The position numbers and the translations under genes are program-made. A stretch of DNA of 64,000 nt from Acidobacteriota bacterium (lineage in GTDB: Bacteria > Acidobacteriota > UBA6911 > RPQK01 > JAJDTT01), in contig OZ253580.1 in the NCBI GenBank assembly GCA_965263035.1, forward strand, positions 1 through 64,000, given 5' to 3'. Positions 14,527 through 58,377 of the stretch are shown in pieces (position 1 is the first letter of the stretch; every line of letters starts with the position of its first letter). The notes under the pieces were generated by a model. The model made no database searches and was not told the origin of the DNA. It saw only the letters and a program-made list of their open reading frames with translations.

Positions 14527-15350
14527 GGCCTCCGAGAATCCGATTCACCTCCCGATTGAACGACACCGCCTTGCCGGACTTGGCATCGAAGACCGCGACG
14601 CCCACGGGCGAGATGTCGACCAAGGCCTCCAGGTCGGCCCGGGCCCGCTGTTCGTTTCGGAAGGCGCGGGCGTTCGCAATCGCCGTCGCCGCTTGCGCCG
14701 CGAACAACACCAGGACCTCTTCATCCTCGCTCGTGAACCCCCGTCCGTCTTCCTTCCCAGCGAGAAAGAAATTGCCGACTTGGACGCCCTGATGATGCAT
14801 TGGAGTACCCTGGAAGGTGGACGGCGGCAGCACATCCAGGGAATAGCCGAGCGATCGGACGAAACCGTGCAGGTCCCGGAGTCTCAGTGGTCCCGGAAGA
14901 TCACGTAGGTGCTCGAAGAAACGCCAATTATCGGGCCAGTCCAGCATCCGCCGGTGGTCGTCGGGAGTCAGGCCGGAAGTGACGATGTCCTGGGGCTGTC
15001 TAGGAGCCTGCGCCGCAGAAATTGATCTACTGCGAAAGCGGTAGAATCGGTCCATATTTCCCCGATTTCTCGGCGAATAGAACAACTATGCACCTCAAAA
15101 TCGAGAACATCTGGCCTCGATTCCCCACTTTCTCGCTACGATCATTTCTACCGCGCAGACTCCTAGAGTCGTCGATGATCGTGATGGCTCCGTAGCGAGC
15201 GCCGGTGAGCTCGCGGGCGCTTTCCACAACCTCGCGCAGGACGGTGTTGAGGTCCAGGCTCGAGCTGATGCGCAGGCTGGCGGCGCTCAGCTTGGAGATG
15301 CGCTCCCGCAGCGCTTCGATCTCTCGCCTCAGTTCGTCGGGACTCTGCAC
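14527..15350 (-). pseudogene. Truncated paralog of the sensor kinase (GAF-PAS part), interrupted by MITE-A
   Basis: Near-identical to 10610-11268; MITE sits in the CTAG equivalent to 11081. Confidence 0.85.
15000..15166. mobile_element. MITE-A copy 2
   Basis: Same sequence as copy 1; empty site visible in the paralog at 11081. Confidence 0.92.
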
Positions 15351-18648: not shown

Positions 18649-19637
18649 TCAGCTCAGACCCGCCAAGCGCTCGGCGTCCGCTTGGCTCCACCCTTCCTTT
18701 TTGAGACGGGCGGCGGCACCGATTCTTGGTCCGATCGGAACGATTCGCGCCAGTGCCGGTTCCAGATTCAACCGAACCGGACGCTCCAAAACCCTTGTCA
18801 GTTCATCCCGGAGAGTGTTTACCCAACCGTTCCCGGTTGTCGCAATCCAAGCCCGGAGCACGTCCACTCTGGAAACTTGGCCAGTGGATCCGACACCAAG
18901 AAGGGCGCGACTGATTCCCAAAGACTCGGCAAGTTCCCCGGAGACGGTTTCTTGAGCCTGTCGGAGCTGCGCCAAATCGTTCGGTTCCAAACGGACAGGG
19001 TGCGGACTCGGGCCGGGATTCTCACCTTGCCGCTAGGAGCCTGCGCCGCAGAAATTGATCTACTGCGAAAGCAGTAGAATCGGTCCATATTTCCTCGATT
19101 TCTCGGCGAATAGAACAACTATGCACCTCCAAATCGAGAAAATCTGGCCTCGATTCCCCACTTTCTCGCTACGATCATTTCTACCGCGCAGACTCCTAGC
19201 AAGGGATGCGAACTCAGTCCACCTTTCAACCGCATCAAGGCGGACATGAGTTTGGTAAGGCGTTGCGGAGACTCAGCGGAGACAGTCGGTAGCAATGTGC
19301 CACGAGGCGCGCCCGCGTCTTGGTGGATTGCGTCGTCTATGGAGGCGAGTTGTTGGACCGCATACCCGCCGGACACCCGCCAACTTTCTCCCCTCCAAGG
19401 TTGGAGACTGGAAGGGCGCGTGATGGCATGGATAACTTGGTCCGGTTGTAGGTTCCGGTACTCGAACGAACGGGAAGGGCCGGAGACCGTCACAAGCCGA
19501 TAGACTCTGTTATCAGCGGACCCTTGCAGGTCGTATCCCGTGACCGGGCGCAGGTTCAAACCGTCGTCCAGCAATAGAACGCACTCGCCATTCTCCACAA
19601 GTTGCCGAGATATCCACGGGAGCAAACCCGCCAGCAC
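18649..19637 (-). pseudogene. Phage portal-like protein remnant
   Basis: RQLVENGECVLLL, QVIH, PWRGES, ELAESLGISRALLG resemble HK97-type portals; MITE insertion and frameshift. Confidence 0.55.
19033..19199. mobile_element. MITE-A copy 4
   Basis: Same sequence; CTAG flanks. Confidence 0.92.
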
Positions 19638-24458: not shown

Positions 24459-24625
24459 CTAGGAGCCTGCGCCGCAGAAATTGATCTACTGCGAAAGCGG
24501 TAGAATCGGTCCATATTTCCTCGATTTCTCGGCGAATAGAACAACTATGCACCTCAAAATCGAGAAAATCTGGCCTCGATTCCCCACTTTCTCGCTACGA
24601 TCATTTCTACCGCGCAGACTCCTAG
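24459..24625. mobile_element. MITE-A copy 5
   Basis: Same sequence; abuts IS1380 and MITE-B. Confidence 0.92.
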
Positions 24626-37527: not shown

Positions 37528-38157
37528 GTGCGCCCGACATGGGCTGTATCTAAGGGATGAAAGATCCCAAGGGAGGTGATGGGACCAACCCTAGCCGAAC
37601 CGCAAGGCGTAGCCGCGAGGTGAAGCTGAAGGAAGCGGAAGGCAAACCCACGACCGCAGGAACACGAACCGGCAGTGAGGCCGGGTGCGGGCGGTGAGCT
37701 GGCGAGCAACAGCGAAACCCGAACCCCATCCAGACGCATCAGGTAGAGCCGGGCGGCCCGGGGGGAAAGATGCAGCACCTTACTCGGGGAGATCTCAAGG
37801 GTGAGAGCCCTTGAGAAGTCAGCAGAGGTCGTAGTAGCGAAGAAGCTGGGTAATGCCGGTGGAGCGAAGGACCGAAGGAGTCGGACTGGCCCTATGGTGG
37901 ACTCGTCAGCGGGATCGCAACTACCTCCGAAAACGGGCCGTGGGGAGGCCCCTCGGACCCGGCATGGAAGGCCCACGGGTGGAGCCCGGCAAGCCGGAAG
38001 GGCGGAGATCAAGTCTCAGCGGCGGCGGAAACCGGAAAGAAAGGCCCTGTACGAGGCTCGAAAGAGCCTCGGGTGACTCCAACCGCCGGATACTGAAAAC
38101 GGTATGTCCGGTGGTGTGGGAGGGTGCAGGGGCGCAATCCCCTGCACTCGACCCGAT
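37528..38157 (+). ncRNA. ORF-less group IIC intron
   Basis: 5' GTGCGCCCG; AGAAGTCAGCAGAGG..GTAGTA; short DV with CGC triad (AACCGCCGGATAC...GTCCGGTGGTGT); DVI hairpin; 3' CCCGAT; no RT ORF. Confidence 0.9.
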
Positions 38158-41270: not shown

Positions 41271-42442
41271 ATGTCTAGTTACACCTCCAATTTCGCCGTC
41301 CGTCTATTCTACAGTTATAGCCACAAAGACAGTCATTTTCGCGACTCTATGGAAGACTCGCTTTCATTGCTCAAACAACGTGGATTGCTCGATGACTGGT
41401 CAGATGTAAAGATTTTACCCGGAGGAAAGATCTCGAAAACCAACAGGAAGAAGATGGATAACGCTGACATCATGGTGTTTCTTCTCAGCCGGAACTTCAT
41501 TGCTTCGACCGAGTGCATGAAGGAATGGGAGTACGCAAAGCGTCGTACTAATGAAAAAGTGCTCGTCCGCATTCCAATAATTCTATCCGATTGTGCGTGG
41601 CTAGATTTGCTTGGGAGCGACGACATCAAAGCATTGCCGCGAGATGGCAAACCTATCATGCGATTTGCCGATGACGGTGGCGCCTGGCAACAGGTATATG
41701 AGGGCATTAAAGTCGTTGTAGACAACTTACGAACAACTTTCACTCCAAAACAGGAATTCTTGGAGATAATGGAGAAAACCGATTTCTTGTCCGTACAACA
41801 CATTAGACTACAGGACATTTTTATATTTTTAAGATTGTCCTGTTACGCACCTCATGCAAGGGGGGAACATCCACCAAAAGAACAGGTTGACACCATAGAG
41901 GAGCTATTAAAGAATAAATATACGATAGTCCACGGTGACGAGATGAGTGGCAAGACAGCTCTCGGGCGCTTTCTGTTTCTTTCTCTGACAAAGGAGTTGG
42001 AACCTGTTCTGCATATAGATTTGCAACATCTTCCTAGACGTCCCCTTCGAGAAGAAACCTTTCGCCATACATATCACCGGCAGTTTAATGGCGATTATTC
42101 TCTCTGGAAGCGACAGCCTTCAAAAACCCTTATATTGGACAACTTGCAGCCAACTCCTCAATTAGTTAAATTTATTGTACTCTCCAAGGATTATTTCGAT
42201 AAAATAATAGTTACTTTATCGTCTGATATATTCAACTCGTTTTTCAGGGACGAAGAGCGTCTGGCCGAATTCTATGAAATGGAAATTGAACCGCTTACTC
42301 ACCGACAGCAAGAGACGTTGATTAGAAATAGACTCCGATTGTCGGATCGTAGCGAAACAATCACCGACGGCGTCGTCGATCAAATAGAAAACCGAGTGAA
42401 TTCCATAATCATTTCTAACAGGATCGTACCACGGTATCCATT
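41271..42442 (+). pseudogene. TIR-domain P-loop NTPase, 5' half
   Basis: FYSYSHKD...SRNFIASTECMKEW TIR; GDEMSGKT Walker A; ends at the TSD. Confidence 0.88.
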
Positions 42443-42493
42443 GGGGACTACACAGATGTCTAGGCACGCCCAAATGCGCCAAATCAGAGACTA

Positions 42494-42580
42494 TCAATCT
42501 CGCACGAAAGTGCTAGAATAGGAAGAGGGGAGCACAACAACCAAGGGCCACACCATCACAACTGCAAGGCCATCAGTCAT
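42494..42580 (-). CDS. 28-aa hydrophobic peptide (type I toxin-like)
   Basis: MTDGLAVVMVWPLVVVLPSSYSSTFVRD; SD GGAG; paralog adjacent. Confidence 0.45.
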   Translation of the reverse strand: MTDGLAVVMVWPLVVVLPSSYSSTFVRD

Positions 42581-42604
42581 CTTAAGGCTCCCCTGCCCCA
42601 TTGC

Positions 42605-42688
42605 CTACCGAATCAGGTAGAATGGCGGGGAGGGGAGCATAAAAACCAAGGCCGACACTAACACAATTAGATCAGCGGCATCAGTCAT
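42605..42688 (-). CDS. 27-aa hydrophobic peptide (type I toxin-like)
   Basis: MTDAADLIVLVSALVFMLPSPPFYLIR; SD GGAG; TATAAT upstream. Confidence 0.45.
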   Translation of the reverse strand: MTDAADLIVLVSALVFMLPSPPFYLIR

Positions 42689-42766
42689 CTTAAGGCTCCC
42701 CTCCATCATTTCATTATACTGCTTGCCTGTAAGATCAGACCCACGAAAGTGCTAGAATGGGATGGA

Positions 42767-42857
42767 GGCGGGTTGCCCGACTTTGGATGATGGGGCCTGT
42801 TTCAGAAACAGGTTGGTCCTTATGGCCACGGAGGTTCGAGTCCTCCACCCGCCTCCA
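42767..42857 (+). tRNA. Atypical tRNA, anticodon CAG, long variable arm, U73, CCA encoded
   Basis: GGCGGGT/ACCCGCC acceptor; CCTGT-TTCAGAA-ACAGG; GGAGG-TTCGAGT-CCTCC. Confidence 0.8.
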
Positions 42858-42904
42858 TCAGGGTTATTGTACTGCTTGCCTGTAAGATCAGACCCACGAA
42901 AGTG

Positions 42905-43159
42905 CTACAAGCCCTGTCGGTGAGACCTTTCTTTTGGAGTCAATGCCCATTCGACACCTCTCGGTTGATGGACTTTCCCTTGGTCCCTTAACAGTTTGAG
43001 TTGTCCTGTAGTAATTGCATTGAACCCCTGCTCTGGCAAACCGAGCTTTTCAGTAATTGGACTTAACGACAACCCCTCCTCGTATTTCTCCAATAGATTC
43101 AAGATTCCAGCTTGGATCAAGCGTTCTCCCATCTCTGCAAGCATTCTAGCCTCTGCCAT
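42905..43159 (-). CDS. Small winged-HTH-like protein
   Basis: ILNLL...GLSLSPITEKLG...LKLLRDQGKV...WALT; SD AGGAGG. Confidence 0.6.
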   Translation of the reverse strand: MAEARMLAEMGERLIQAGILNLLEKYEEGLSLSPITEKLGLPEQGFNAITTGQLKLLRDQGKVHQPRGVEWALTPKERSHRQGL

Positions 43160-43185
43160 CTGCTTCCTCCTAAGTAAAATACATC

Positions 43186-43485
43186 ATGGAACTAGGATTC
43201 ACACTTCCACCCACCCGACCCCGCCCAAAGATCCCTCTACAGCAAACGTGTAAGAGGTGTGGGCAACCAGACAAGTTCGACTTCCACGTACCAGATCATC
43301 TTTGGAAGTCTATAGTCCCAAAGTCCCATCGGAACCTTGCTATGTGTCTGTATTGCTTCGATGAGGAGGCCGCCGCTAAAGGTATTCCCTACGCGTGGGC
43401 CATCACTGAGTTTTGTTTTGCAGGCCGCGGAGCCACATTTGGCTTCACGGTGTCACGATACGTTGAAAAGAGGCAACTGATCTAG
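43186..43485 (+). CDS. Small CxxC...CxxC protein
   Basis: CKRC and CLYC motifs. Confidence 0.55.
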   Translation: MELGFTLPPTRPRPKIPLQQTCKRCGQPDKFDFHVPDHLWKSIVPKSHRNLAMCLYCFDEEAAAKGIPYAWAITEFCFAGRGATFGFTVSRYVEKRQLI

Positions 43486-43649
43486 TCGTCACAGTCGCCG
43501 TCCTTTTCTTTGGCCTGGCACTGATTGCAAAGTTCCCCGCTGGTCGGCTTCGCGTTCCTGCTAACGTAGTCGTCCGTTGGCCAGTTGGAACAGTTGCGGC
43601 AATAGTGCCACGTATCGCTCGTTCTTCGCTTTCGGTATTGTCTCGCCAT
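43482..43649 (-). CDS. Small zinc-finger-like protein
   Basis: TWHYCRNCSNWP...GELCNQC; SD GGGG. Confidence 0.6.
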   Translation of the reverse strand: MARQYRKRRTSDTWHYCRNCSNWPTDDYVSRNAKPTSGELCNQCQAKEKDGDCDD

Positions 43650-43766
43650 GCTTTTCACCCCCTTTCTGGCTAGTCGTGATCCCATTAAGGAAGGAATCAG
43701 AGGAGCTTGATAAGAGACTTCAAATATAGCTTGAGTGCACGCCCAAATGCGCCAAATCGGATATTC

Positions 43767-43979
43767 TCAATCGTCAATCTGAGAGGCAGCGAACTCCAAG
43801 ACTCGGGCTAGTTCTCGGGCTTGGTTAGTACTCATATATGAGTAAACATTACCGTTTTCAATCCTCAGTTCCAGTGGGTAAGTCTCTTTGCAATCTTCCT
43901 CGTGAGGGTATCGAAGGCGAACTTCCCTGGTGGGGTACGCGCTCAATGTGATCTCAAATTCTTTCTTACTGTCTATCAT
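43767..43979 (-). CDS. Hypothetical protein (preceded by a 36-aa ORF at 43992-44102)
   Basis: Strong SD GAGGAG; 70 aa. Confidence 0.6.
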   Translation of the reverse strand: MIDSKKEFEITLSAYPTREVRLRYPHEEDCKETYPLELRIENGNVYSYMSTNQARELARVLEFAASQIDD

Positions 43980-44548
43980 GGTCCTCTCCTCCTATAGTCC
44001 CAACATTCGAGCAAACTGCTCCTTGGTCATGCCGTCATAAATGCTGCGTTTCGGCCTGAAGAAGTTATTTAGATGTTGCAGTACAATAATGACAATTGCC
44101 ATTGGTTTACATCTCCATAGTTATTTCATTGGCAACGGCCAGGGGGTTTGGGAGTTCTTCCCCCTGGCCACTAACCTTCCTCAGATATCATACCACAGAA
44201 TCAGGAAAAGGGAACGGCGGGGAAGAGCGGAGGAGTCTGACGGCTCCGAAGCGACACACTACGCATCAGATCCGACACCCGGCTTTCCAGTGTGTCACAG
44301 GCTCCCTTGCGTGCGTGAGCAAGTAGGCAAGGAGTTCATCCTCCGCTCCTCTGTCCTCTTATTGTACTCCGTGTGCAATACGTGGAGGATTTAGGAGGCG
44401 GCGCGGCTCCAACATGGAGCAAAGGGTTTTGTGTAGCCAGTTCAGTTAGGCAAAAACGCGCCGCCCTGGTAAATGCCTACCATGATATTCGATGGAGTGC
44501 AACCTGTGATCTGGATTTCTTGTCACAGGTGGTCTACGATGCGGTGGA

Positions 44549-44652
44549 GGAGGGGTGGCAGAATTGGCATTGCACTCGAATTTAAACTCGTAGGTCAGTA
44601 GGCGTTGCACCACAGCGCACCTGTACGGGTTCAAATCCCGTCCCCTCCTCCA
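44549..44652 (+). tRNA. Degenerate tRNA-like gene; very long variable arm, irregular anticodon arm (loop around TTTAAA)
   Basis: GGAGGGG/CCCCTCC-TCCA acceptor; ACGGG-TTCAAAT-CCCGT T-arm; D-loop TGG. Confidence 0.6.
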
Positions 44653-44662
44653 TTGTGATGTC

Positions 44663-44751
44663 GGGAGCGTGGCCGAGTTGGATTATGGCGCCCGGCTGAA
44701 AACCGGGTGGGTGTAACAGCCCCGCAGGTTCGACACCTGCCGCTCCCGCCA
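44663..44751 (+). tRNA. Atypical tRNA: Ser-like body with GAA (Phe) anticodon
   Basis: GGGAGCG/CGCTCCC-GCCA; CCCGG-CTGAAAA-CCGGG; long variable arm; G73. Confidence 0.85.
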
Positions 44752-44773
44752 TCAATTCATAATACTCGGAGCA

Positions 44774-45223
44774 TCAAAAAAGCCTTTGACTTCGTTGGAG
44801 CAGGCCATCGAGTCTTCCTTTCGGAAGTTTTCCAACAGATTCCCAAATCGTCTCTCCAAAAACCGCCTCATACGATCCTGATTCGATGAACTCAGTAGCG
44901 TTTAGCGAGAGGATGACCCCAACACAGTCCGCCAGTATCAGTGCGGCCAGCGCCTCACGTCGGACCATCCCTCCAAAACCATTACGGGCACCAAAATCAA
45001 TTAGGACTAGTCGATACCCTTTAAGTTCAGGAGAGCTAGACGCGATCGTTTTTATTACTGTAGTGCTGTACACCTCCAGGCTGTTAGGGTCTGTCAACTT
45101 CTGTTGAATCTGCTCGTTTAGACCCGGAACACTGCCGTCTGAACTCATGCAATTAGACCCACTCGACGGCGTACAATTGGCGGTCAGAAGCACAAGAAGC
45201 AAAACGGTGCAGGAGTTTTCCAT
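44774..45223 (-). CDS. Putative lipoprotein
   Basis: LLLVLLTANC lipobox-like; FGARNGFGGMVR motif. Confidence 0.6.
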   Translation of the reverse strand: MENSCTVLLLVLLTANCTPSSGSNCMSSDGSVPGLNEQIQQKLTDPNSLEVYSTTVIKTIASSSPELKGYRLVLIDFGARNGFGGMVRREALAALILADCVGVILSLNATEFIESGSYEAVFGETIWESVGKLPKGRLDGLLQRSQRLF

Positions 45224-45254
45224 AACTCAATCTTTAATTAGAATAGATGTAGAC

Positions 45255-45345
45255 GGCGGGTTGCCCGACTTTTGGATGATGGGGCCTGTTTCAGAAACAG
45301 GTTGGTCCTTGTGGCCACGGAGGTTCGAGTCCTCCACCCGCCGCC
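45255..45345 (+). tRNA. Atypical tRNA, anticodon CAG, long variable arm, G73
   Basis: Near-identical to 42767-42857 except the discriminator; TAGAAT upstream. Confidence 0.8.
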
Positions 45346-45477
45346 CTTGCAATGAAGGAGGATGAGAACCGAAACCGTGCCTTCCCTAACTTCACACTGC
45401 CGACTAGAGCAGCTTAAAAGAAGGCGAGTAACGAACCGAAAAGCTCATCCTCCTCCATCAATTTATAATACTTTGAC

Positions 45478-46755
45478 CTAAAGTCCTGGCACAGAACTGC
45501 ACTTCGATGGAACGATCACAGGATCATCCGATTCCTCAGACTCTCGGTACCTAATAGACCCTCTTTGCGACCAGGGGAGGTTAGGCACATCGGGCAGTTC
45601 AATCTCTGTTCTAGTACCGCCTACGAATCCCTTATCTGGCACCAGTACCCATTCACCACGCCTGTACCAGATGTGAGATCGTGCCCAGACCCGCGAGTAC
45701 CTAATATCGATCGGATCATCTTCGGACATACGTCGGTGGAAAGCGCCGATGTTTGGATTAGGTTTAGAGCTACTAGAAAAGGAACTCGTCCAACTCAGCT
45801 TTCCAGAGAAATTCAACCTGGCCGTAGCGACACATCGACCTGGTCTTTCTTCAAATACCTGGTGGATCTGGTATCCTTGTGCAGTATCAGGCAACTCATA
45901 TCCGCCATCAGAGGTACGGGTTCTACCACCTCCTGCAGGAACCACTGACATCCCATTCTCCAGAGCAGGAGGGATCCCTTGGTAGTCAGCACGTGCTGCC
46001 TTCCCATAGATGCCTTCTATTGTGGTGTCAAAAGCTCCCTTTTCCCGTATTACAATGTCTCTCCAGTCACCAGGGGGACAGTCACCTTCCGTCACGTCTG
46101 GAGGGCCTTCATACAATCGCTCCCACTGTGCTTCATGCCACCGGGCGTTTCCATACTCCGGAGCAAAAGACTCAACTACCATCAAGGTGTAATCGAGCCC
46201 TGTCCCTGACTCTGGGTCGTCCACTTTGACAAGCCAACGCTTGAACTCATCTACAACTCGCCGATTCATGTCGGAGTAGCTTTTGACTCCGACAATGTGC
46301 CCACGGAAGTACTCGGTCCCAGAGAACGAATCAGAGAGAACACGTATACATTCCTCTGTCTTGAGGACTTCATGGGCATCTTGAATGGGCGCTTCGGTGA
46401 GCTCCACTGATTCGCACTCGAGTTCGTCTTTGAATCTAAAGGAGTCTGTTGGGTCCTTGTCTCCATAGATGAGTACAAGAGGGTCGGGAAGAGGAACGAC
46501 CATTGCAGCAAAGAACTTCCCTGACTCGTACTCTGTGACTCTCCACTCATAGATGTGACCACAATGGATCGCATCAAAAAATTCTAGGTTGATGATCTGA
46601 CCGTCGTGGGGAGGCTCTGAAAGACTCACCTCAACGCGACAATCTGGACAGGCGTTAGGGATAAATCCGTATGGAGTGTCGAATCCCCACTTCTCCTCGG
46701 CTTGTACATTCGCCAGGAATGCAGCAAAGGCCATTAGCACAATTACTTTTCTCAT
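45478..46755 (-). CDS. Secreted hypothetical protein
   Basis: MRKVIVLMAFAAFLANVQA signal peptide; SD AGGAGG. Confidence 0.75.
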   Translation of the reverse strand: MRKVIVLMAFAAFLANVQAEEKWGFDTPYGFIPNACPDCRVEVSLSEPPHDGQIINLEFFDAIHCGHIYEWRVTEYESGKFFAAMVVPLPDPLVLIYGDKDPTDSFRFKDELECESVELTEAPIQDAHEVLKTEECIRVLSDSFSGTEYFRGHIVGVKSYSDMNRRVVDEFKRWLVKVDDPESGTGLDYTLMVVESFAPEYGNARWHEAQWERLYEGPPDVTEGDCPPGDWRDIVIREKGAFDTTIEGIYGKAARADYQGIPPALENGMSVVPAGGGRTRTSDGGYELPDTAQGYQIHQVFEERPGRCVATARLNFSGKLSWTSSFSSSSKPNPNIGAFHRRMSEDDPIDIRYSRVWARSHIWYRRGEWVLVPDKGFVGGTRTEIELPDVPNLPWSQRGSIRYRESEESDDPVIVPSKCSSVPGL

Positions 46756-46783
46756 AGCGTACCTCCTTACTCTGTATTCAGAT

Positions 46784-47128
46784 TCAGAATCCCAATGCCT
46801 TGCGGGCGAACTTCTGGATCTGTTTCCACATAATGACCTGATCGAAGTGATGGTCAACGCCGTAATGGTCAGTGTGCGTTATACCATCCTTCAAAATCTC
46901 GCCTGCAATGGGGAGCACGGAGTCGGGAGTCCACCGAGTCAGAACGTCCGAAGGATCGTCCGTCCGGCACAGGTACATCTGTGCTGTAATAACGATCATG
47001 TAGTCGCCTGTGTCGGACGGAATCACGAACAGTGCGTTTGGAGGAGTCTCCACCTCCGTGTTCCAAGGGTGTCCCACACCAAACGCGACGGATAGAATTG
47101 TGATAGCGATTAGCAATGTGTTTCTCAT
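46784..47128 (-). CDS. Secreted hypothetical protein
   Basis: Signal peptide; SD AGGAGG; TATAAT upstream. Confidence 0.65.
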   Translation of the reverse strand: MRNTLLIAITILSVAFGVGHPWNTEVETPPNALFVIPSDTGDYMIVITAQMYLCRTDDPSDVLTRWTPDSVLPIAGEILKDGITHTDHYGVDHHFDQVIMWKQIQKFARKALGF

Positions 47129-47991
47129 AATGCCTCCTTCTCGTACCTTGTGTACGACTTGTTGATTTATGACATCGGTGACCGACGCATTTAGTACACT
47201 ATTATATCACATTATAATAGATGCACAAAGCAAGACGACCAAGGAATTAAGGAAGTATTCGGAAGGGGCGGGACAATAACAAACCGCCCCTTCGAACATC
47301 GCTCCGGGGTCGGGTGAAAGTAGTAAAGCCCTCCCCCATGTGGGAGCGATTACCGGGGTGGCCGAATCAAAGCTACACCTTCATCGTCGTACTGTCCGAC
47401 CCAATTATCGTGGGACAGACGATGTCGGGCGTGCGATCTCAACTGTGCCCGAGTTGCCGGGAGGAGCAGACCCATGAGGCGCGTCTGATCCTGAGCGAGG
47501 GGCAACAACGCTTCCCAGGTAATGCCTCCTGGCGCAGTCATCAAGTGATCGAGGTATCCGGCGTAGGTGCTGAAATTGCGGGGCATCGCGGGTCCCTCCT
47601 GGGGGAGGGTCCCGTATCAGAGGCGTAGCAAGCTGACAACGTATCGGGTAAACTGTCTGACAGGCTGACTTTCCTCCAACACAGGACCAGTTGGCTCAGA
47701 GTCCGTTGGGTGCTGATATCACCTGACGGACTCACCTTTTCAGAGTACTCGGCCTAGCTACAAGGAGCACTCGTTCCCTTGTAAGGGAGCCGGGTCTGAG
47801 TGCTCATCGAACAGCGATGCTGATGGAAGAGTTGCTTATTCACCCGGCGCGGTTCATGAGGCCACGCTTTACCAGGTTGTTTTATTCAGCAAGAGACCCG
47901 ACACAAGCGAATCACTGCCGAGAGCACTGAGGCGGGATTGTGCCGGATAAATAATTGGTAGTCAATAGAAGGGAGAAAATTATCTCAACTC

Positions 47992-48219
47992 TCAGCGGAG
48001 GGTGTCCACCACGGCATTCCGTACCGATTCCATCCAGGTCTCAATCTCCCGCTGGTGTTGGACCAGGGCCTTTACCTTGTCGTCCACAATCCGCAGCCGT
48101 CGGATAATGAGCAGGTGAGAGACGATGATGAGGAATAGGACCAGGAGCAAGGCGAAGGCGTACCAGTGTTGATCGACGATGGGAGGGATTCGGGAGAGTA
48201 ATGAGTTGAGCTGTTCCAT
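47992..48219 (-). CDS. Small single-TM protein
   Basis: FALLLVLFLIIVSHLLII followed by a coiled segment. Confidence 0.55.
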   Translation of the reverse strand: MEQLNSLLSRIPPIVDQHWYAFALLLVLFLIIVSHLLIIRRLRIVDDKVKALVQHQREIETWMESVRNAVVDTLR

Positions 48220-48272
48220 GCTTCAATCTTCCTGCTTTGCCGAAGTATAATACATACATGGCGGAGGGTTGA

Positions 48273-48348
48273 TGGACGCAGCGGGCTTCGGACCCGCGTC
48301 TCCCGGTTTTCAGCCGGGTGTGTTATCCGGGATAAACACTATGCGCCC
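48273..48348 (-). tRNA. Atypical tRNA: G3:U70/A73 (Ala identity) with GAA (Phe) anticodon
   Basis: GGGCGCA/TGCGTCC-A; GTGT/ACAC D-stem; CCCGG-CTGAAAA-CCGGG; GCGGG-TCCGAAG-CCCGC; no encoded CCA. Confidence 0.75.
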
Positions 48349-48475
48349 TCGGTTTGCTTTTCCCTCCGCCATTCTAAACATCTTGCCAAGGTCAGGGGTC
48401 TTTGGTATTTTGGCCTCTCTCGCGCATGATTGTAGGCAATCAATATTATGTGTTATCATGTGTTCTTCAATGATG

Positions 48476-48551
48476 TGGAGCCGGTGCCAGGAATCGAACC
48501 TGGACACGAGGACTTGCTGGGCCCCGGCGTTTGCCATTCCGCCACACCGGC
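48476..48551 (-). tRNA. Atypical tRNA, anticodon AGC, C3-G70, U73, CCA encoded
   Basis: GCCGGTG/CACCGGC-TCCA; GGGGC-CCAGCAA-GTCCT; CCAGG-TTCGATT-CCTGG. Confidence 0.75.
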
Positions 48552-48575
48552 TCCCTTCATTATAGACCGTCAGAG

Positions 48576-48651
48576 GGGAGCCGGTGCCAGGAATTGAACC
48601 TGGAAACAAGGAATTGCGAGTCCCCGACCTTGGCCACTCAGTCACACCGGC
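48576..48651 (-). tRNA. Atypical tRNA, anticodon CGC, C3-G70, U73
   Basis: Same body; GGGGA-CTCGCAA-TTCCT. Confidence 0.75.
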
Positions 48652-48675
48652 TCCCTTCATTATAGACCGTCAGAA

Positions 48676-48751
48676 GGGAGCCGGTGCCAGGAATCGAACC
48701 TGGAAACAAGGAATTGCCACTCCCCGACCTTGGCCACTCGGCCACACCGGC
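48676..48751 (-). tRNA. Atypical tRNA, anticodon GGC, C3-G70, U73
   Basis: Same body; GGGGA-GTGGCAA-TTCCT. Confidence 0.75.
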
Positions 48752-48871
48752 TCCCTTCATTTTAGCACAGGGGGACTATCGTGAAAAAACGACCTCGCAA
48801 GCCCGTGGACATCCTAGCCCTGGCAATGCGCCGGGCTTATGAGCAAACTAGGGGCGGAGAAGCCGAATCCC

Positions 48872-49843
48872 TCAATGAAGATCGTCCGCCTTGTCGGAAA
48901 CCAGATCGAGATACAGCAGACGACGACCGACCATCCCCGCCACGATGTGCTTCATCTGGTCAATAGTATCCAGTTCCCGGATGTTGTGACGCTTGACAAA
49001 CTCGTTGACGTAGCGGTGCAGGTGCTTCACGCTCAAGCTGTGGAACGTCCCCATGTAGCCCCGCTTCAACATCGACCAGAAGGATTCGATGCCATTTGTG
49101 TGTACTATGCCGTCAACGTACTGTTGAGCGCTGTGTCTCACAGACTTGCGATTTGAGCCCATCCAGGCGTAAGCCTGATTCTCGTCCGTGTACGACTTCA
49201 CTCCGAAAGTGGAGCTGTCCAAAATGAACCGGGCAAGAGTCTCCTTTGTCGTGTCCGGCACCACCCTGGCCCTGATTTGATTCGTAGGCCGGTCCTTCAT
49301 GCCTACCACTGCGGTCTTGCCTGAGGGTCCACGACCGGAAAACATCGCCCGTCGCTTCTTGCTCATGTTCCTCCGCTTGCCTCCCATATAAGTCTCGTCG
49401 ATTTCCACGGGACCGATCAGAGCTTCCAAATCGTCCTTGTCCAAGGACTCGCGGAGTCGGTGCAACATGAACCACGCCGTATTCTGCGTCACGTCGATGT
49501 CTCGATGGAGTTTCATCGAGGAGACTCCCTTGAGGTTCGTGACGTAGATGAAAATGGCGTAGGCCCATTTTCGGAGCGGAACCTTGGATCTTGTCAAGGC
49601 CGTGCCAGTGCGGACGCTGAAATACCTACGGCAGTCCGAACACCAGTACGGCTGCGGATATCGGTTTGGCGTCTCATTCGTCTTGACGCTGCCGCAATGA
49701 CCACAGCACCGTTCCTCGGGCCAGAGAACATCCTCAAACCATTTCGTCGCGGCTTCCTCCGTGGGGAACATCTCCGCGAGTTGGATCATTGAGATCCCTT
49801 GTCGGTAGAACTTTCCGGGGGCTTTCCCCTTGCACTTGTCCAT
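48872..49843 (-). CDS. IS1595-family (ISXO2-like) transposase
   Basis: Zn ribbon CGHC/CSDC; VEIDETYMGG, YTDE, HTNGIESFWS. Confidence 0.95.
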   Translation of the reverse strand: MDKCKGKAPGKFYRQGISMIQLAEMFPTEEAATKWFEDVLWPEERCCGHCGSVKTNETPNRYPQPYWCSDCRRYFSVRTGTALTRSKVPLRKWAYAIFIYVTNLKGVSSMKLHRDIDVTQNTAWFMLHRLRESLDKDDLEALIGPVEIDETYMGGKRRNMSKKRRAMFSGRGPSGKTAVVGMKDRPTNQIRARVVPDTTKETLARFILDSSTFGVKSYTDENQAYAWMGSNRKSVRHSAQQYVDGIVHTNGIESFWSMLKRGYMGTFHSLSVKHLHRYVNEFVKRHNIRELDTIDQMKHIVAGMVGRRLLYLDLVSDKADDLH

Positions 49844-50152
49844 GGTGGGCCTTTCGTGGTAGGATTCTCGGGACGCGGCTGAACCGAGGAACCCACGGCC
49901 TGGCAACCTCCGTTTGTAAGTGAGAGACCAGAGCGCAGGACCTGCTTCGAAACCGCGTCCAATTCAATTATATCACACCTTTATAGATGGTGTTTTTATC
50001 AGCCTTACTCTCCTTTAATTCCCTGTAATTATGCCATCGGACCCTGACATTTTTCTGTCATAAATCCTTTGTTTAGTTTAAGGTTACGAAGATTTAATTG
50101 ACCTTTTGTGTGATTGTGTGGTAAAATTATTGGGTTAATGTGAACAGGAGGC

Positions 50153-50332
50153 ATGATGACTAAGAAGGAACTCAACGGATTCACAGAGGCAGTTCGAACG
50201 GTTGTCCGAGAGGAATTAAAGCCGATTGAGCAGCGTCTCGACAAACGCCTTGACGACTTGAAGAAGGAAATCCCTGGTCTAGTTGCGGACGTGATCGCAC
50301 AACGATTTCCAACCCTGTTCCCACACTCATAG
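50153..50332 (+). CDS. Small coiled-coil protein
   Basis: MMTKKELNGFTEAVRTVVREELKP...; SD AGGAGG; paralog of 50427. Confidence 0.6.
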   Translation: MMTKKELNGFTEAVRTVVREELKPIEQRLDKRLDDLKKEIPGLVADVIAQRFPTLFPHS

Positions 50333-50426
50333 GCTGCCAGATCAATTAGGAGGAAGGTTACGAAGATTTAATTGACCTTTTGTGTGATTGTGTGGTAAAA
50401 TTATTGGGTTAATGTGAACAGGAGGC

Positions 50427-50705
50427 ATGATGACTAAGGAAGAACTCAACGGTTATGTCAACGCCGTCAGGCTCGTGGTCCAGGAGGAACTTGAGCCCGT
50501 CAAATCTCAGATTACAACCCTGACTCTTCGAATGGGAGATGTGGAACTGAGGTTGGGAGAGGTTGAAGCCAGAATGGGCACGTTGGAGTCTCGCATGGGA
50601 ACGGTCGAGGCCAGAATGGGGACATTGACTCAGAGAATGGGTGATGTTGAGACTAAGGTAGGGGCGTTGACTCAGAGAATGGGTGATGTTGAAGCCAAAT
50701 TGTAG
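50427..50705 (+). CDS. Small heptad-repeat coiled-coil protein
   Basis: (A/S/Q)RMG(T/D)(V/L)E heptads; duplicated 85-bp promoter/RBS block. Confidence 0.65.
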   Translation: MMTKEELNGYVNAVRLVVQEELEPVKSQITTLTLRMGDVELRLGEVEARMGTLESRMGTVEARMGTLTQRMGDVETKVGALTQRMGDVEAKL

Positions 50706-51073
50706 GATGGGGTGATGGAGGAGAACGACTAGACGTAGTTGTAGGGGTAGGTGACTACTGCCCCTCCGGGGGGAGCGATGGAGTTAGTCAAACTACCACT
50801 CCCTCTGTCCCCTCCATCATTTAATTATACTCCCCACGAAAGTGTAGAATGGGATGATGGAGGAGGGAAACCAATCCTGCCGTCCCATGTATTAACACCA
50901 CAATCGGCAGGGCTACCGTTGAGGCACACCCCAAGGCGGTAGGCTGCTCAGCGATAGTGTGTCTTCCACTGGGTCCAGCCATCGCCCTCCTCCATCATGT
51001 GATTGTACTCCCCACGAATGTAAGGCCCAGTTCAATGACCCTGGAGGCGTGCCTAGACATCTGTGTAAGCCCC

Positions 51074-52387
51074 TATCCATTCTACGTACTCTCAATACTC
51101 CAAACCTACGAGGCCTTTATGCCTAGTGAGCTCTCTATTACTTCCTACGGTCACTGTTACTATGTCCTTATTATTGCCAACTTAGTTAAGGCAGGCATAC
51201 CTCGTAGCGACGATCAACTAAATACATGTTTTTACTTTGCAGAACGCTTAGCATTTGAAATTTATCGGATTGCAAGGAAATCCAACTCGGGGTCGTTGGA
51301 TTTTGACAAGTTTGTGGCGGACTACAGAAATCAATATATAATTTCGCGATCGGTCCTGAGTAGGTTGATGCATCCCGATTTTGGAATCATCAATACAGAA
51401 GGTCAATTCAAAACAGCGTACATGTACTACTTCTTTCTGGGCAGGTTCCTCTCGAAGAACCGCAGCACACACATATCCATAATTGAGAATATGTGTGAAA
51501 ATAGCCACGTGACTTCGAACCACCTGACGCTTCTTTTCGTTATTCATCATACTGATGATAGACAAATAATTGATGACATATTGCTTAGGACAATGTGCAC
51601 ACTGGACACTGTGCAACCCGCGGTTCTAGATCGAACGGAAACTCGGAGATTCAAGGATATCATTGCCGGGCTCCCCACAAATATACTCTCCAATGATAGT
51701 GTGGTGAAGGAAAGGAAAAGACAGAGGGATGGTCGCGACTTGACCGAGAAGCAAGACGGGTACGATGGTGATACGGATGGCATCGATCAACAAAGCCTGG
51801 TTAACGACATTTACAAAATCTTTAAAAATAACGAGATTATGGGGCAAATTCTACGAACCAAATACGGAACGTTAAAAAAAGAGACGATTGTGGAAATCAT
51901 CGAGACGATTGCGGACAGTGGGCTACGCCTTGTCAACTTTGTCCTCAAGGATGAAAAGGAAATAGCCGATACCGCCCACTACCTTCATGCGAAATATCCG
52001 AAGGATGATATAAAGAAGATAAAAAACTATCTTCAATTCTTTTCTTTTTTCTGGACGATAGTAAATGTTGAAAAAGTTGCTAGAGCCATAAATGTTCCAG
52101 AGATTATTGAAACGGTCGATTCAGTCGTTACGCGGAAGGGGTCGCCGGCGTACGATCTTATTGGATACTTCAGCCTGCTCGACAGTTCTCCGGAAATCTC
52201 AAGGAAAGTTAATAAACGACTAGGATACCTATTGAACACTCACAAGGACCTGTTTGTTAAGTGGGTGTTGTCAATTAGAACGCAATACTATATGAATACC
52301 CACGATAGTGGGGCATCGATGGAGCAATCGGTCTGTTCGTTGTTAGATATCAAGTATTCCTCAGCCCATCGTTCCTTACGACGGTAA
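51074..52387 (+). pseudogene. TIR-domain NTPase, 3' half
   Basis: Removing the transposon and one TSD gives in-frame NRIVPRYP|FYVLSILQ; 825 aa in total. Confidence 0.88.
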
Positions 52388-52599: not shown

Positions 52600-54337
52600 C
52601 CCAGATTATTCATGGAACATGTTGATAAGAGCTTCCAACCCGGCGTTTTCGTGCGATCGGAGCCCGGTTTCTCTTGAACCTCTGTCGATTCGACTGAATC
52701 GGCTCGAAAACAGGACGATTGAACCAGTCATTAACCGTTTACCGGCCAGGGGGACCGTCACCCGCCGACAGGTTGACTTTCCGGTGAGAAATCCCCACCG
52801 TTTCGGTCCCTTCCACGGGCCCGTTTTCTCCTCCGTCCACTATCCCGGCGCCCAGGACACCCGCGCCAGTCTCTGCCACAACCGCTTCCAGTCCGTCGCC
52901 CCTTGACTGATGACGAAAATCAATCGCCTCCCCTGACGCAGCGCCCGACTCGCCACTCGCAACACCCGCTCGCGAAAACGACGCAGACTCCAGCCCCGAC
53001 GCGTCGCCTGCTCCATCAGCACCCGACCCAGGTGCAGGATCTCGTACCCCAGCAGATTCAGCAGGAACCGGACTTCGTTGTGGGGTCGAACGCCGGCCTC
53101 CGTCCTCGCTTCCGGCTTGGCTTCCGACTTCAGCGGTTGGCCCCGATAGTGCGTCTTGGGCCGGCTCGCGGAGGACAAGGCCGGATCGAGCACGTCCATG
53201 AACTCCCCCATGTGGCCTTCCGCCTTCCCCCGCTTTCGATACTGTGCCAGCAACTCCTGAGCCTCGTATCGTTTCCGGCTCAGGCTCGTCAGCAACCAGA
53301 AATGATCCGGATACAACTCCCCCGGTCGCTCCCGCACCACCAGCACCACCCGGAGCGTCAACTTCAGCGCCTTTTTCCCCAGGTAGCTGGCTCCCGGAAA
53401 AATCTCCCCGTCGATCAGGTCCCCCGTCTCGGCACAACTCGCCACCAACCCGTGGTACATCCGCTGGCGATAGTATCCGTTCCATTCGCTTCCCGGGGGA
53501 TGCCCATGGACCTCGACCGGGAGACCGTCCACGTCCAGGTACATCGTCTTTTTCCGTCTCTTCTTCCGTGGGGTCTTTTTCCCCCGTTTTCGCCGCTGGC
53601 CTTCGATCATCTCGATCCGACGGCACGCCAGCTCCGTCACCGCCTGGTGCAGGACCGGAAGGTTCTCCTCCCGGCTGAGCGTGTCCAGCAGTCGGGACAA
53701 GGTCGGCTGCGACGCCAGCCCCTGGCCCTCCTCCAAGGCCGCCGTGCCCCGACGAGTCCGGCTCGCCACCCGCAAGCTCGGATCCTGACGCAGGCGGTCG
53801 GCGTCGGACTGGTCGCGCCAGCCCTGACCCAGCAGCAGGAGTCGAGTCCGCAGCAGATCCGACAGCGGATAGCGGATCGAACTCGGGTGTCGCGGATCGT
53901 GCAACCGCCCGGTCAACCAGTCGATGAGGCCGCTGCGATCCATCAGCTCCCGCTGCACCAGGGCTCCCGTGTCCGCACTGAGCAACTCGGGGCGGGTCTC
54001 GAGGCGGAGGGATCGGTTGAATGAGGGCCGGATCTGCGGTATCGTCTCAGGCATGGCGTGCTCCGTTCTTTGTGGTTGTTTCTTAGCACTATAATCATAC
54101 CACAAATGACGGGCACGCCGTCTCTTTATGCCGCCCTTGGAGGGGACGAAAACCGTGGAAATGCTTGGGTTTCGGCCCCCCTTGAATCCTGGGGTTAAAC
54201 CGACGTTGAAAACAAATATAGCGTTTCACCCAGGTCGGATCCCATCCGTTTTCTGTGGGTATCCGGTAACCCTCTGATCCGACTCGACATGACGGGCACG
54301 CTTGCTCATTTTATGTTTGCGTGATGAATAATCTGGG
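52600..54337 (-). mobile_element. IS1380-family element; transposase 52840-54054, possibly internally deleted
   Basis: Perfect TIR CCCAGATTATTCA; LSADTG, LASQPTLSR, LDVDG, YRKRGKAE. Confidence 0.85.
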
Positions 54338-57303: not shown

Positions 57304-58377
57304 TCAAAAACTGCTGCGTCCTAGTAAATCGAGGGCAGTTTGCGGCCGTAATGGCTCGATATGGGCGAGTGCATTGCGCGCCTTGCGCAGCTGCCGGACG
57401 CCTCTGCGCAGGGCCCAAGTTCCTCCTCGCCGTACCACCGAATGTAGTTCCCCAATTTCCAAGTCATCAGGGTTCCTGGAGGCCATGCCATTTCGACGTA
57501 AGTGACGCCTAATCTCAGAAGCATTACGTCGCACGATCACACCGCGCCATGATTCAATTCGTGGAAGTAACACCGATGCTTGCGCACTCCATACCCGGCG
57601 GTTGATCTCACGCGGCGGTTCGTCGAGCGCGGCAAGGGCTGCGTGCACTTTACCCGATCCAGACGCGGTACCGAATCTCCACTCGGAAGGTGTTGCGATC
57701 GTCCAACCTCTATCGTGTGCAAACAAACGAAGTATCTCACACGGAGCCAGGATCGCGTTGATGTCCTCATCGACCAAGAGCTCGGCGGTTTCGAACTCCC
57801 AAGCCGCCACACGGGCGATTGTCATCGCCAACAAAACTGCTTCCGACTCAGCTATCCCCCGTCGCAAGAGACATTCATGCGCCCAGAACAGAATATCCAT
57901 TTCGCCAACTACGTTGTTCCAGTCGTGAACAGACATGCACACATCTGTATCCGGTGGATTCCCCAGCGGTGCACCCTCCAACGGCGCTACAAACAGAGTC
58001 CGTCCCAACGCCGATACGCTACGACAAGCGTGAGCGTACTTCGCGAGAAAGTCACGCCAGCAAAGCCAATTACTCGACGTCAAGTCGTCCAACCAGATTA
58101 GCCTTCCGCGGAATGCATCGTTTTCACAAATTACTGGCAAATCGTCGTCATGCATAGAAGAACCAGGCGCATACTGATTACATAATGACTCAAACGGAGA
58201 ATCGCCGGCGCTGAACCTGTTCATGACCAGAACATGATCCAATTTCGCCATCACGGAGTCGCAGAACCCATTCGGCATGGCGCCTGGGAACCTCGCAACT
58301 ACGTTGACTCCGTTGCGAAGAGATCGCTCCACCGCTTCCACGAATCGTACCGGACCTGGCAAGTCCCATAGTCTCAT
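57304..58377 (-). CDS. Hypothetical protein translationally coupled to the giant NTPase
   Basis: ATGA overlap; 357 aa; LIWLDD and C-terminal RNALAH motifs. Confidence 0.8.
   Translation of the reverse strand: MRLWDLPGPVRFVEAVERSLRNGVNVVARFPGAMPNGFCDSVMAKLDHVLVMNRFSAGDSPFESLCNQYAPGSSMHDDDLPVICENDAFRGRLIWLDDLTSSNWLCWRDFLAKYAHACRSVSALGRTLFVAPLEGAPLGNPPDTDVCMSVHDWNNVVGEMDILFWAHECLLRRGIAESEAVLLAMTIARVAAWEFETAELLVDEDINAILAPCEILRLFAHDRGWTIATPSEWRFGTASGSGKVHAALAALDEPPREINRRVWSAQASVLLPRIESWRGVIVRRNASEIRRHLRRNGMASRNPDDLEIGELHSVVRRGGTWALRRGVRQLRKARNALAHIEPLRPQTALDLLGRSSF

Follow-up and report, generated by a model that had tools for sequence, protein, structure and literature searches.

Introduction

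Departures from the genetic code by natural tRNAs are documented in few instances (allo-tRNAs, tRNA-ProX and the Ser-tRNA(CAG) of some yeasts), and their spread and purpose are open questions. The closest precedent for the locus described here is a looser kind, the irregular-tRNA polycistrons of soil metatranscriptomes, in which clustered tRNAs show a mismatch between anticodon and identity elements (Mukai et al., 2017; PMC5389517). We have analyzed the first 64 kb (contig OZ253580.1, positions 1–64,000, forward strand; hereafter the window) of the single-contig, 6.2-Mb genome of an Acidobacteriota bacterium (GenBank assembly GCA_965263035.1). Within it, an 8,631-bp transposon of the IS1595 family (42443–51073) contains two tRNA genes with the anticodon CAG, together with at least six more tRNA genes whose anticodons and bodies do not match. 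The CAG genes are paralogous, non-canonical class-II tRNA genes on a tyrosine-like scaffold, carried as transposon cargo. We propose that they form part of a missense-suppressor set, an interpretation for which we judge the chances to be evenly balanced. Such mismatched tRNAs might cause misincorporation of amino acids in the bacterium's proteins.

The soil polycistrons resemble this array in several respects (PMC5389517). They are described as including tRNAs with a 7/5 acceptor/T branch, U73, a CGC anticodon and a cysteine-like D-loop, further U73 tRNAs with AGC, GGC or UGC anticodons, and histidine-like tRNAs whose triplet GUG is shifted to positions 35–37, as the triplet GCA is shifted in our element. 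Their 7/5 class-II members likewise have foreign anticodons, there of the stop-codon type (UCA, UUA, CUA) and here CAG and GAA. Natural tRNAs with serine or alanine identity and foreign anticodons were reported to insert these amino acids in Escherichia coli, and the authors suggested a link between irregular tRNAs, transposable elements and toxin-antitoxin genes (PMC5389517). Compared by eye with rows of the published supplement, the array of our element shows the marks of an irregular cluster, being clustered and containing U73 tRNAs with NGC anticodons as well as 7/5 class-II tRNAs with foreign anticodons; its likeness to the published CGC type is limited to D-loop and anticodon-loop motifs. 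However, the polycistrons are reported from short unassigned transcripts, without transposon borders, whereas our array lies, with borders, in a complete genome. Furthermore, no tyrosine-like 7/5 tRNA with a CAG anticodon is found among the data-set rows compared (two of 25 parts, plus keyword matches).

Other known systems are more distant. Allo-tRNAs have a long variable arm, serine identity elements and non-serine anticodons, including one CAG, and are reported to insert serine at leucine codons in E. coli (PMC5389517; PMC7609411). Their definition rests on an 8/4 or 9/3 branch together with a long D-stem capped by a tetraloop, whereas the CAG genes have a 7/5 branch, a 4-bp D-stem and a D-loop of 11–12 nt; what the two share is an anticodon foreign to the identity elements and a neighborhood of transposon or toxin-antitoxin genes. 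By their predicted fold, the CAG genes thus fall outside the allo-tRNA definition and belong with the irregular tRNA clusters. The tRNA-ProX/ProRSx pair of Streptomyces and Kitasatospora also combines a foreign anticodon with another scaffold and causes proteome-wide mistranslation, but tRNA-ProX adjoins a dedicated synthetase isoform (PMC10404621), whereas the genes described here are transposon cargo in a genome with single seryl-, cysteinyl- and tyrosyl-tRNA synthetases (SerRS, CysRS and TyrRS). In CTG-clade yeasts and Ascoidea, Ser-tRNA(CAG) competes with tRNA-Leu(CAG), so that serine or leucine is placed at CUG; that case is eukaryotic, chromosomal, fixed in a lineage and proven by proteomics (PMC6041473), whereas here such competition is only a possibility.

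As for the vehicle, IS1595-family elements such as ISApl4 share with our element the DDE_Tnp_IS1595 domain, terminal repeats starting with GGGGCT or GGGGAC and an 8-bp duplication (PMC12561309); such elements have either no cargo or resistance genes, whereas ours carries an array of tRNA-like genes. Dense tRNA clusters on mobile DNA are known, too, from the array units found in mobile elements, in phages and in mycobacteria (PMC4758250, PMC5966550). Those arrays consist largely of canonical tRNAs for many amino acids, whereas nearly every member of the present array is mismatched.

Here, by contrast with the metatranscriptomic polycistrons, a whole set of mismatched tRNAs appears as the cargo of a transposon with clean borders in a complete genome, and a simpler second example exists in another genus. 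Carriage by an IS1595-family transposon would offer a vehicle for the horizontal spread of codon-reassigning tRNAs. The locus belongs to a culturable genome, and its genes amount to natural experiments in tRNA identity: a tyrosine-like body with CAG and either G73 or U73, a serine body with GAA, a G3:U70 body with GAA, and cysteine-like bodies with NGC anticodons.

Two tRNA genes with the anticodon CAG

ARAGORN reports six tRNAs in the window, among them tRNAs with the anticodon CAG at 42767–42857 and 45255–45345, both of which it labels as leucine tRNAs. We refer to these genes, both on the forward strand, as CAG-1 (42767–42857) and CAG-2 (45255–45343). The Rfam tRNA model matches them with 44.4 and 42.9 bits (gathering score 29), alike in a scan of 7.2 kb and of the whole genome; a scan of the entire 64-kb window at default filters missed both. 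Their predicted fold is a cloverleaf with a long variable arm, in which none of the 21 stem pairs is broken in either copy. The variable region has 17 nt, as counted from the sequences, with a stem of merely 4–5 pairs. The anticodon loop is intact, with 7 nt, U33 and a purine (A) at position 37, and the T-loop and G18G19, elements of the L-shape, are preserved, while positions 15 and 48 are both C. An 8/4 or 9/3 branch was considered and rejected, the eighth pair in the 8/4 register being U:C. A shifted UCA or AGA anticodon hidden in the CAG loop was also considered and dropped, since U33 makes it uninformative.

Over positions 1–73, the two copies are identical in 86 of 89 aligned columns (96.6%). 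The three differences, all at unpaired positions, are an additional U in the D-loop of CAG-2, an A/G exchange in the variable loop (G in CAG-2) and the discriminator, which is U73 in CAG-1 and G73 in CAG-2. Position 73 is followed by an encoded CCA in CAG-1 and by CCC in CAG-2, and it co-varies with position –1 (A:U in CAG-1, C:G in CAG-2). In CAG-1, leader and trailer lengthen the acceptor helix to 13 bp (42761–42859), so that the CCA is paired within a 6-bp extension; in CAG-2, the extension is the C-1:G73 pair alone. Beyond the genes the similarity ends: the 60-nt flanks are 49% and 46% identical. An identity that is bounded by the gene in this way suggests selection or gene-precise copying.

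A tyrosine-type body without a tyrosine or leucine discriminator

An earlier interpretation of the bare DNA (hereafter the sequence-only reading) had described the two genes as near-identical except for the discriminator and as lacking the A73 that leucyl-tRNA synthetase (LeuRS) requires. Both points are borne out by the matches and alignment above. The genes are not, however, leucine tRNAs with an altered discriminator: the body of both tRNAs resembles that of tRNA-Tyr by BLAST, alignment, sequence model and tree.

Several tRNA identity elements bear on this question. For LeuRS, A73 and the 15:48 pair are reported to be crucial, and G73 is an antideterminant against both LeuRS and TyrRS; TyrRS depends critically on A73 and U35. 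Serine tRNAs are marked by the extra arm, G1–C72, G2–C71 and, in vivo, G73, cysteine tRNAs by U73 and GCA, and alanine tRNAs by G3:U70 (PMC9976931). Of the leucine features, the CAG genes have an anticodon of the leucine box (NAG/NAA) and a long variable arm. They do not have A73, which is present in all five canonical leucine tRNAs of the host, nor A15:U48, and in place of the G37 found in the host's CUN readers (the CAG, GAG and UAG leucine tRNAs) they have A37. Their pairwise identity to the host's leucine tRNAs, 50–60%, is also the lowest of the three classes compared. Of the serine features, both copies possess the long variable arm, G1–C72 and G2–C71, while G73 is present in CAG-2 (45255–45343) and absent from CAG-1 (42767–42857); CAG-2 further has C11:G24 and G30–C40. 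With the host's tRNA-Cys, CAG-1 shares U73 and the first five acceptor pairs.

It is the tyrosine-type class-II body that the CAG genes match best, even though A73 and U35 (of the anticodon GUA) are replaced by U73 or G73 and A35. In 400 genomes of the phylum, all 14 of the best BLAST loci that were examined (L010–L022 and L028; five loci with 20-nt T-arm matches were left out) place the match inside a tRNA-Tyr(GUA) gene. In the alignment, the CAG genes share with tRNA-Tyr the start (UUGCCCGA) and the end (AUGGG) of the D-arm, the core of the variable arm (CUUAUG) and an identical T-arm; they differ in the anticodon arm, in a larger D-loop and in a variable arm that is longer by 3 nt. For 38 class-II tRNAs, we also computed a maximum-likelihood tree in which the anticodon arm and N73 were masked (67 columns; one tyrosine row truncated by trimming was dropped). 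There, the CAG pair (support 100/100) falls outside the leucine clade (100/100) and into an unresolved grade of tyrosine tRNAs; because the columns are so few, the tree can exclude but cannot place precisely. A model (R1) trained on the two CAG genes plus ten tyrosine genes gives 86 bits to the host's tRNA-Tyr, which was not among its training sequences, and 66 bits to the highest-scoring of the other host tRNAs, compared to 80.7 and 78.3 for its training members CAG-1 and CAG-2. The margin between tyrosine-like and serine-like is modest, because canonical Ser-UGA tRNAs of other genomes reach about 72–77 bits. Judged by these comparisons, the scaffold of the CAG genes is of the tyrosine type, their anticodon is that of leucine, and their discriminator is neither that of tyrosine nor that of leucine.

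The other mismatched tRNA genes of the element

Six further matches to the tRNA model lie within 6 kb of the CAG genes. On the forward strand, an irregular tRNA-like gene of 101–104 nt (x101; 44549–44652; Rfam 39.4 bits) has the acceptor stem of the host's tRNA-Tyr, U73-CCA and a 9-bp leader/trailer extension; its anticodon region is aberrant, and it may have an 8-nt anticodon loop (AUUUAAAC) as well as an extra hairpin ahead of the T-arm. It is followed by a class-II gene (44663–44751, forward strand; 52.9 bits) that combines the phenylalanine anticodon GAA with a serine-type body, G73 and CCA. The nearest database matches of the latter are tRNA-Ser-like stretches in seven phage records (74–79% identity), five of them annotated as tRNA-Ser, and in the tree it stands inside the serine clade, beside the host's Ser-UGA tRNA (support 91/60).

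On the reverse strand, a second gene with the anticodon GAA (48273–48348; 50.6 bits) has the alanine identity pair G3:U70 together with A73, and its T-loop (UCCGAAG) is deviant. It has the same 17-nt anticodon arm as the class-II GAA gene (inverted repeat I3, 100%), so that one arm occurs on two different scaffolds. Also on the reverse strand, three tandem 100-bp units (48479–48751) each consist of a TATAAT hexamer and a tRNA, with the anticodons AGC (with C33), CGC and GGC. These three have U73, do not have G3:U70, and possess a D-arm resembling that of the host's tRNA-Cys as well as the cysteine triplet GCA at positions 35–37. By these assignments, at least eight tRNA genes of the element, the CAG genes included, pair the anticodon of one amino acid with the body of another. 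Measured with Rfam coordinates, pairing of leader and trailer lengthens the acceptor helix of three of the eight, by 6, 7 and 9 bp; in none of the genome's 50 other tRNA-model hits does the extension exceed 4 bp.

An IS1595-family transposon that splits an antiphage gene

The element is delimited by 28-nt terminal inverted repeats (42443–42470, forward strand, starting with GGGGAC, and 51046–51073, reverse strand), which are identical at 26 of 28 positions in a local alignment with the right repeat reverse-complemented. Identical copies of the octamer TATCCATT, an 8-bp target-site duplication, flank it at 42435–42442 and 51074–51081. Inside, a gene on the reverse strand (48872–49906) encodes an IS1595-family DDE transposase of 344 residues (Pfam DDE_Tnp_IS1595, E 1.8e-34; Zn_ribbon_IS1595). 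These features agree with the GGGGCT-type ends and 8-bp repeats reported for the family member ISApl4 (PMC12561309). The element is present once in the genome, and by tblastn its transposase is about 50–52% identical to those of other genomic IS1595-family copies. Its GC content is 51.8%, compared to 62.1% for the genome.

The insertion lies within a gene on the forward strand that encodes a TIR-NTPase antiphage protein. Its N-terminal half (41271–42442), with an apparent open reading frame (ORF) that continues to 42521 inside the element, matches Pfam TIR_2 (E 2.2e-12), a ThsB-like TIR in PADLOC (E 1.9e-29), positions 187–288 of PDC-S60 and positions 311–560 of NCBIfam NF053861 (E 1.4e-21, under the curated cut-off). 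The C-terminal half (51082–52387), whose apparent ORF begins at 50957 inside the element, matches positions 554–994 of NF053861 (E 5.1e-68) and positions 438–889 of PDC-S60 in PADLOC (E 2.3e-24). Because both scores lie below the curated cut-off, we regard the protein as a relative of the NF053861 family and not as a named member. Excising the element along with one copy of TATCCATT rejoins the halves in frame, and the IS1595-family insertion has, by this reconstruction, split and inactivated the antiphage gene in this strain.

The transposon also contains a 99-bp duplication (50080–50178 and 50354–50452, 98% identical), each copy of which precedes a small coiled-coil ORF (50153–50332 and 50427–50705).

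An array of small RNA genes with a shared spacer

Each RNA gene of the element has a TAGAAT or TATAAT hexamer 8–10 nt before its first position. For CAG-1 this is a –10-like TAGAAT on the forward strand (42753–42758), 8 nt ahead of the gene and preceded by TGC in the manner of an extended –10 element; it is absent from the promoter-scan list because it has no –35. For CAG-2, the corresponding hexamer (45239–45244, forward strand) lies 10 nt ahead of the gene and is part of a promoter found by the scan (TTTCCA-16-TAGAAT, 45217–45244). The motif CACGAAAGTGCTA occurs three times in the genome, always in the element (42503, 42742 and 42895). Downstream of many of the RNA genes stands (C)CUCCAUCA, which a few bases separate from ATTRTACT; all four genomic copies of the motif TCCATCA-N3-6-ATTRTACT lie within the element.

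On the opposite strand, the motifs ATTRTACT/ATAATACT that follow RNA genes (e.g. 42866–42873, 44759–44766 and 45465–45472) read as –10-like hexamers (TATAAT, TATTAT or TACAAT) aimed back into the gene, and it is possible that convergent antisense promoters reside there.

Besides the tRNA genes, the array holds structured units that are not tRNAs. At least four fold like cloverleaves, with terminal helices of 10–12 bp and the same flanks as the tRNA genes. Two paralogous units, X1 and X2 (42520–42712, forward strand), each stand behind a TAGAAT and belong to the repeat families D5, D7 and D8; X2 has a 10-bp terminal helix and ends with CCUCCAUCA (fold z-score –3.71 on the forward and –4.96 on the reverse strand), and neither unit matches Rfam at E≤5. 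Two cloverleaf-shaped units further downstream (50704–50824 and 50851–50996), listed on the forward strand although their strand is uncertain, each have three hairpins inside a 12-bp terminal helix and, like X2, the 3' motif CCUCCAUCA. Their fold z-scores are –4.08 and –3.37 on the forward and –2.40 and –3.87 on the reverse strand, and Rfam gives no convincing match. Units with long terminal helices and the flanks of tRNA genes, none matched by an Rfam family, can be seen at 42520–42712, 44222–44360, 45356–45460 and 50704–50996.

The sequence-only reading had noted perfect 38-bp direct repeats around the first CAG gene and regarded them as the borders of a cassette. The repeats themselves are as described: the 38-mers at 42717–42754 and 42870–42907, both on the forward strand, match perfectly, differ at the adjoining base on either side and are the only two copies in the genome, where we estimate that about 1e-10 exact repeats of this length would be expected by chance. 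Their role as cassette borders gave way to another description. The first copy belongs to the spacer/promoter module upstream of CAG-1, while the second has TACAAG at its –10 position and no RNA gene behind it. The looser similarity around them spans 59 nt (89.8%; 42700–42757 and 42852–42910) and therefore reaches into the RNA gene ahead, covering its 3' end. In sequence terms, the repeat is the duplicated inter-gene spacer/promoter of a small-RNA array, and its layout of spacer, tRNA and spacer is as expected of an array built by reusing one spacer; the demonstrable mobile unit is the 8.6-kb transposon.

The locus is present with identical sequence in six public runs from three studies, which may represent the same or near-identical strains. 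In four runs from the three studies, the unitig of the 38-mer is covered roughly twice as deeply as its flanks, as would be expected if each genome has two copies, and in all four the tRNA-specific unitig has the depth of the flanks. No allele without the 153-bp unit, no joint and no variant appeared in these runs, but a deletion between the repeats would be invisible in their contigs, because the 38-bp repeat exceeds the 31-letter words from which they are presumably built (the length given for the index of the runs) and no new word would arise.

Relatives of the genes and of the element

By BLAST, the CAG tRNA has no match in any of 40 relatives (0/40) and no full-length match in the 400 genomes of the phylum, where partial matches of 19–42 nt lie nearly all in the 3' half, with one in the anticodon arm. 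Pattern scans of viral contigs and of JGI metagenome contigs found none, plasmids gave no match, and in phage records the class-II GAA gene was the only one to be matched. Two pattern scans of species-representative genomes yielded nothing in one case and, in the other, a single chance match (L009) that holds no tRNA and was discarded. The model R1 matched in 139 of 150 genomes; the 15 lower-scoring matches that were fetched are all canonical tRNAs (10 serine, two leucine and three tyrosine), with a further 46 weaker ones unlisted. As no homologue was found in these collections, covariation can be read from the two CAG copies alone.

Transposase relatives are at most 59% identical in the 400 genomes and 33–41% in metagenomes. 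Across 29 IS1595 transposase loci with 1.5-kb flanks, we found one irregular tRNA, two canonical tRNAs and one tmRNA-like piece. The irregular tRNA belongs to a second IS1595-family transposon in a genome of another genus (G320, locus L059, 6192–9635), which spans 3.4 kb, is bounded by inverted repeats of 26 nt and a duplication of 8 bp (TTTGTGGG), and carries this tRNA as its cargo, with the anticodon GAA, U73 and a 10-bp leader/trailer helix. Its D-arm is of the same type as that of the AGC, CGC and GGC genes. An empty insertion site was not found; the C-terminal half of the antiphage gene is without a match in the 40 relatives. Among the papers listed by a literature search, judged by titles and the beginnings of abstracts, none describes an IS1595-family transposon with such tRNAs. 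Two unpublished genomes (G016 and G063) are counted in the tallies only.

Possible functions of the CAG tRNAs

The host has a complete set of ordinary tRNAs, including a canonical tRNA-Leu(CAG) with A73 and CCA (5466330–5466417). In a crude set of 4,074 long ATG-initiated ORFs, CUG is the commonest leucine codon (43.7 per 1000 codons, 43.5% of leucine), as abundant as the sequence-only reading had supposed; UUC accounts for 78% of phenylalanine codons, and GCC and GCG together for 78% of alanine codons. The codons matched by the mismatched anticodons are thus the host's commonest for leucine, phenylalanine and alanine.

Against this background, we propose that transcription of each CAG gene would start at a TAGAAT promoter of its own, giving a transcript with only a few leader bases that is then trimmed to a 7/5 class-II tRNA. 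LeuRS and TyrRS would ignore both copies, because A73 and A15:U48 are missing and position 35 is A and not U. The G73 copy would be the better substrate for SerRS and, if charged, would rival the host's tRNA-Leu(CAG) and bring some serine to CUG codons, as the sequence-only reading had suggested. This is a plausible outcome and would be the most likely one in translation, because of G1–C72, G2–C71, C11:G24, G30–C40 and a variable region of 17 nt, as serine tRNAs of the phylum have variable regions down to about 14 nt. The U73 copy would be a poor SerRS substrate and may stay uncharged or take a little serine or cysteine; weak cysteinylation is conceivable, because U73 and the first five acceptor pairs are those of the host's tRNA-Cys. 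Together with their neighbors, the CAG genes would then form a transposon-borne set of missense suppressors directed at the host's commonest leucine, phenylalanine and alanine codons.

Several considerations weigh against this interpretation. On the side of the tRNAs, C15/C48 breaks the usual tertiary pair, so that folding may suffer. Two bases (AC) precede the T-stem, as in tyrosine tRNAs (UAC), unless U45 and A pair, whereas serine tRNAs have one unpaired base between variable stem and T-stem. In the tree, the CAG pair lies outside the serine clade (82/98). That all three differences between the copies fall in loops has, by our own estimate, a chance of about 0.15, and no homologue of the CAG tRNA came to light in any collection searched. 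On the side of the host, the genome encodes one SerRS, one CysRS, one TyrRS and one tryptophanyl-tRNA synthetase, with no dedicated synthetase evident; no RNA run holding the locus is among the public runs listed; and misreading the commonest leucine codon should be costly. Finally, several irregular tRNAs are reported to remain uncharged by E. coli enzymes, or to be charged and yet not used in translation (PMC5389517).

The last of these points is shared by an explanation that we consider rather unlikely, namely that the CAG genes give rise to tRNA-shaped RNAs that serve the transposon outside translation, as regulators, decoys for tRNA-binding enzymes or toxins, processing signals or partners of antisense RNAs; regulatory roles have been proposed for such uncharged or untranslated tRNAs (PMC5389517). 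It would account for the cloverleaf-like non-tRNA units, at least four in number, which have the terminal helix and flank motifs in common with the tRNA genes, for the –10-like hexamer on the opposite strand behind the genes, and for the leader/trailer helices of 6–9 bp in three of the eight element tRNAs and none of the 50 others, which bury the CCA end of CAG-1. Such a role would not, however, call for the intact 7-nt anticodon loops with U33 and a purine at position 37, nor for the retained T-loop and G18G19, and the three NGC genes vary mainly at position 34, within the alanine box, which looks like selection for decoding. Doubtful, and quite unlikely in our estimation, is a far-reaching version of the missense-suppressor reading, in which the transposon would be a deliberate mistranslation module. 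Its battery of tRNAs would re-read the host's most-used leucine (CUG), phenylalanine (UUC) and alanine (GCN) codons as serine, alanine or cysteine, held in check by inward antisense promoters and buried CCA ends, with the two CAG copies bringing two amino acids to one codon by virtue of G73 and U73. Carried as IS1595 cargo, the module would be a conditional toxin, an addiction device or a means of diversification under stress.

Decay would be another explanation, and we think it unlikely. The CAG genes would then be neutral hitch-hikers, formerly tyrosine-like tRNA genes of an earlier host whose anticodon and discriminator drifted and which are now inert. The element is indeed foreign in GC content (51.8% vs 62.1%), single-copy and without a close relative in the collections searched; C15/C48 is unusual, and some neighbors look damaged, such as x101 and the 76-nt GAA gene with its deviant T-loop. 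Yet drift should break stems, and all 21 pairs are intact in both copies; moreover, identity falls from 96.6% to less than 50% exactly at the gene borders, both copies have kept TAGAAT at the right distance, and at least eight tRNAs of the element show the same kind of mismatch while still being foldable. It is highly improbable that the genes are ordinary additional tRNA-Leu(CAG) isoacceptors, charged by LeuRS despite their odd discriminator. The anticodon, the long variable arm and the ARAGORN label would fit, but A73 is a crucial leucine determinant and G73 a LeuRS antideterminant (PMC9976931), A15:U48 and G37 are missing, and the genes lie outside the leucine clade with their lowest identity (50–60%) to the host's leucine tRNAs. 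A last proposal concerns the gene copies rather than their products. Perfect 38-bp direct repeats can support deletion via recombination or slippage, and the array has apparently grown by reuse of its spacer, so that the 153-bp unit between the repeats might be a cassette gained or lost by recombination, with strains having one or two CAG copies. We regard this as very unlikely: the repeat covers the end of the preceding gene, which fits an array spacer and not a recombination site, and the locus occurs in no other genome searched. The tRNA-specific unitig is at flank depth in all four runs and no joint is reported, in contigs that could not reveal such a deletion.

Further observations in the host genome

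Outside the element, the genome (G000) contains four extra tRNA-Leu(UAA)-like genes (2101850–2101936, 2914932–2915018, 5348837–5348922 and 5672126–5672212). They start with C1:G72 (CCCCGG...) and have low tRNA-model scores. All four are located in repeated regions of several kb, and one has an IS1595-type transposase nearby; TTA codons are very rare in this genome (0.7 per 1000).

Within the window, a repeat of about 164 bp is found at about 8547–8710, 14999–15165, 16969–17134, 19035–19198 and 24461–24624. It has well over 100 copies in the genome, with 93–100% identity, and resembles a miniature transposable element. Rfam matches to group II intron domains (85.5 and 43.6 bits) occur at 37609–37872, just upstream of the low-GC region. 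Downstream of the element, there are transposase genes at 52840–54105 and nearby, and the reverse strand harbors an ORF of at least 1,869 codons (58374–63983) with matches to AAA/STAND-type ATPases. The stretch from 40 to 64 kb as a whole has a lower GC content than the left part of the window.

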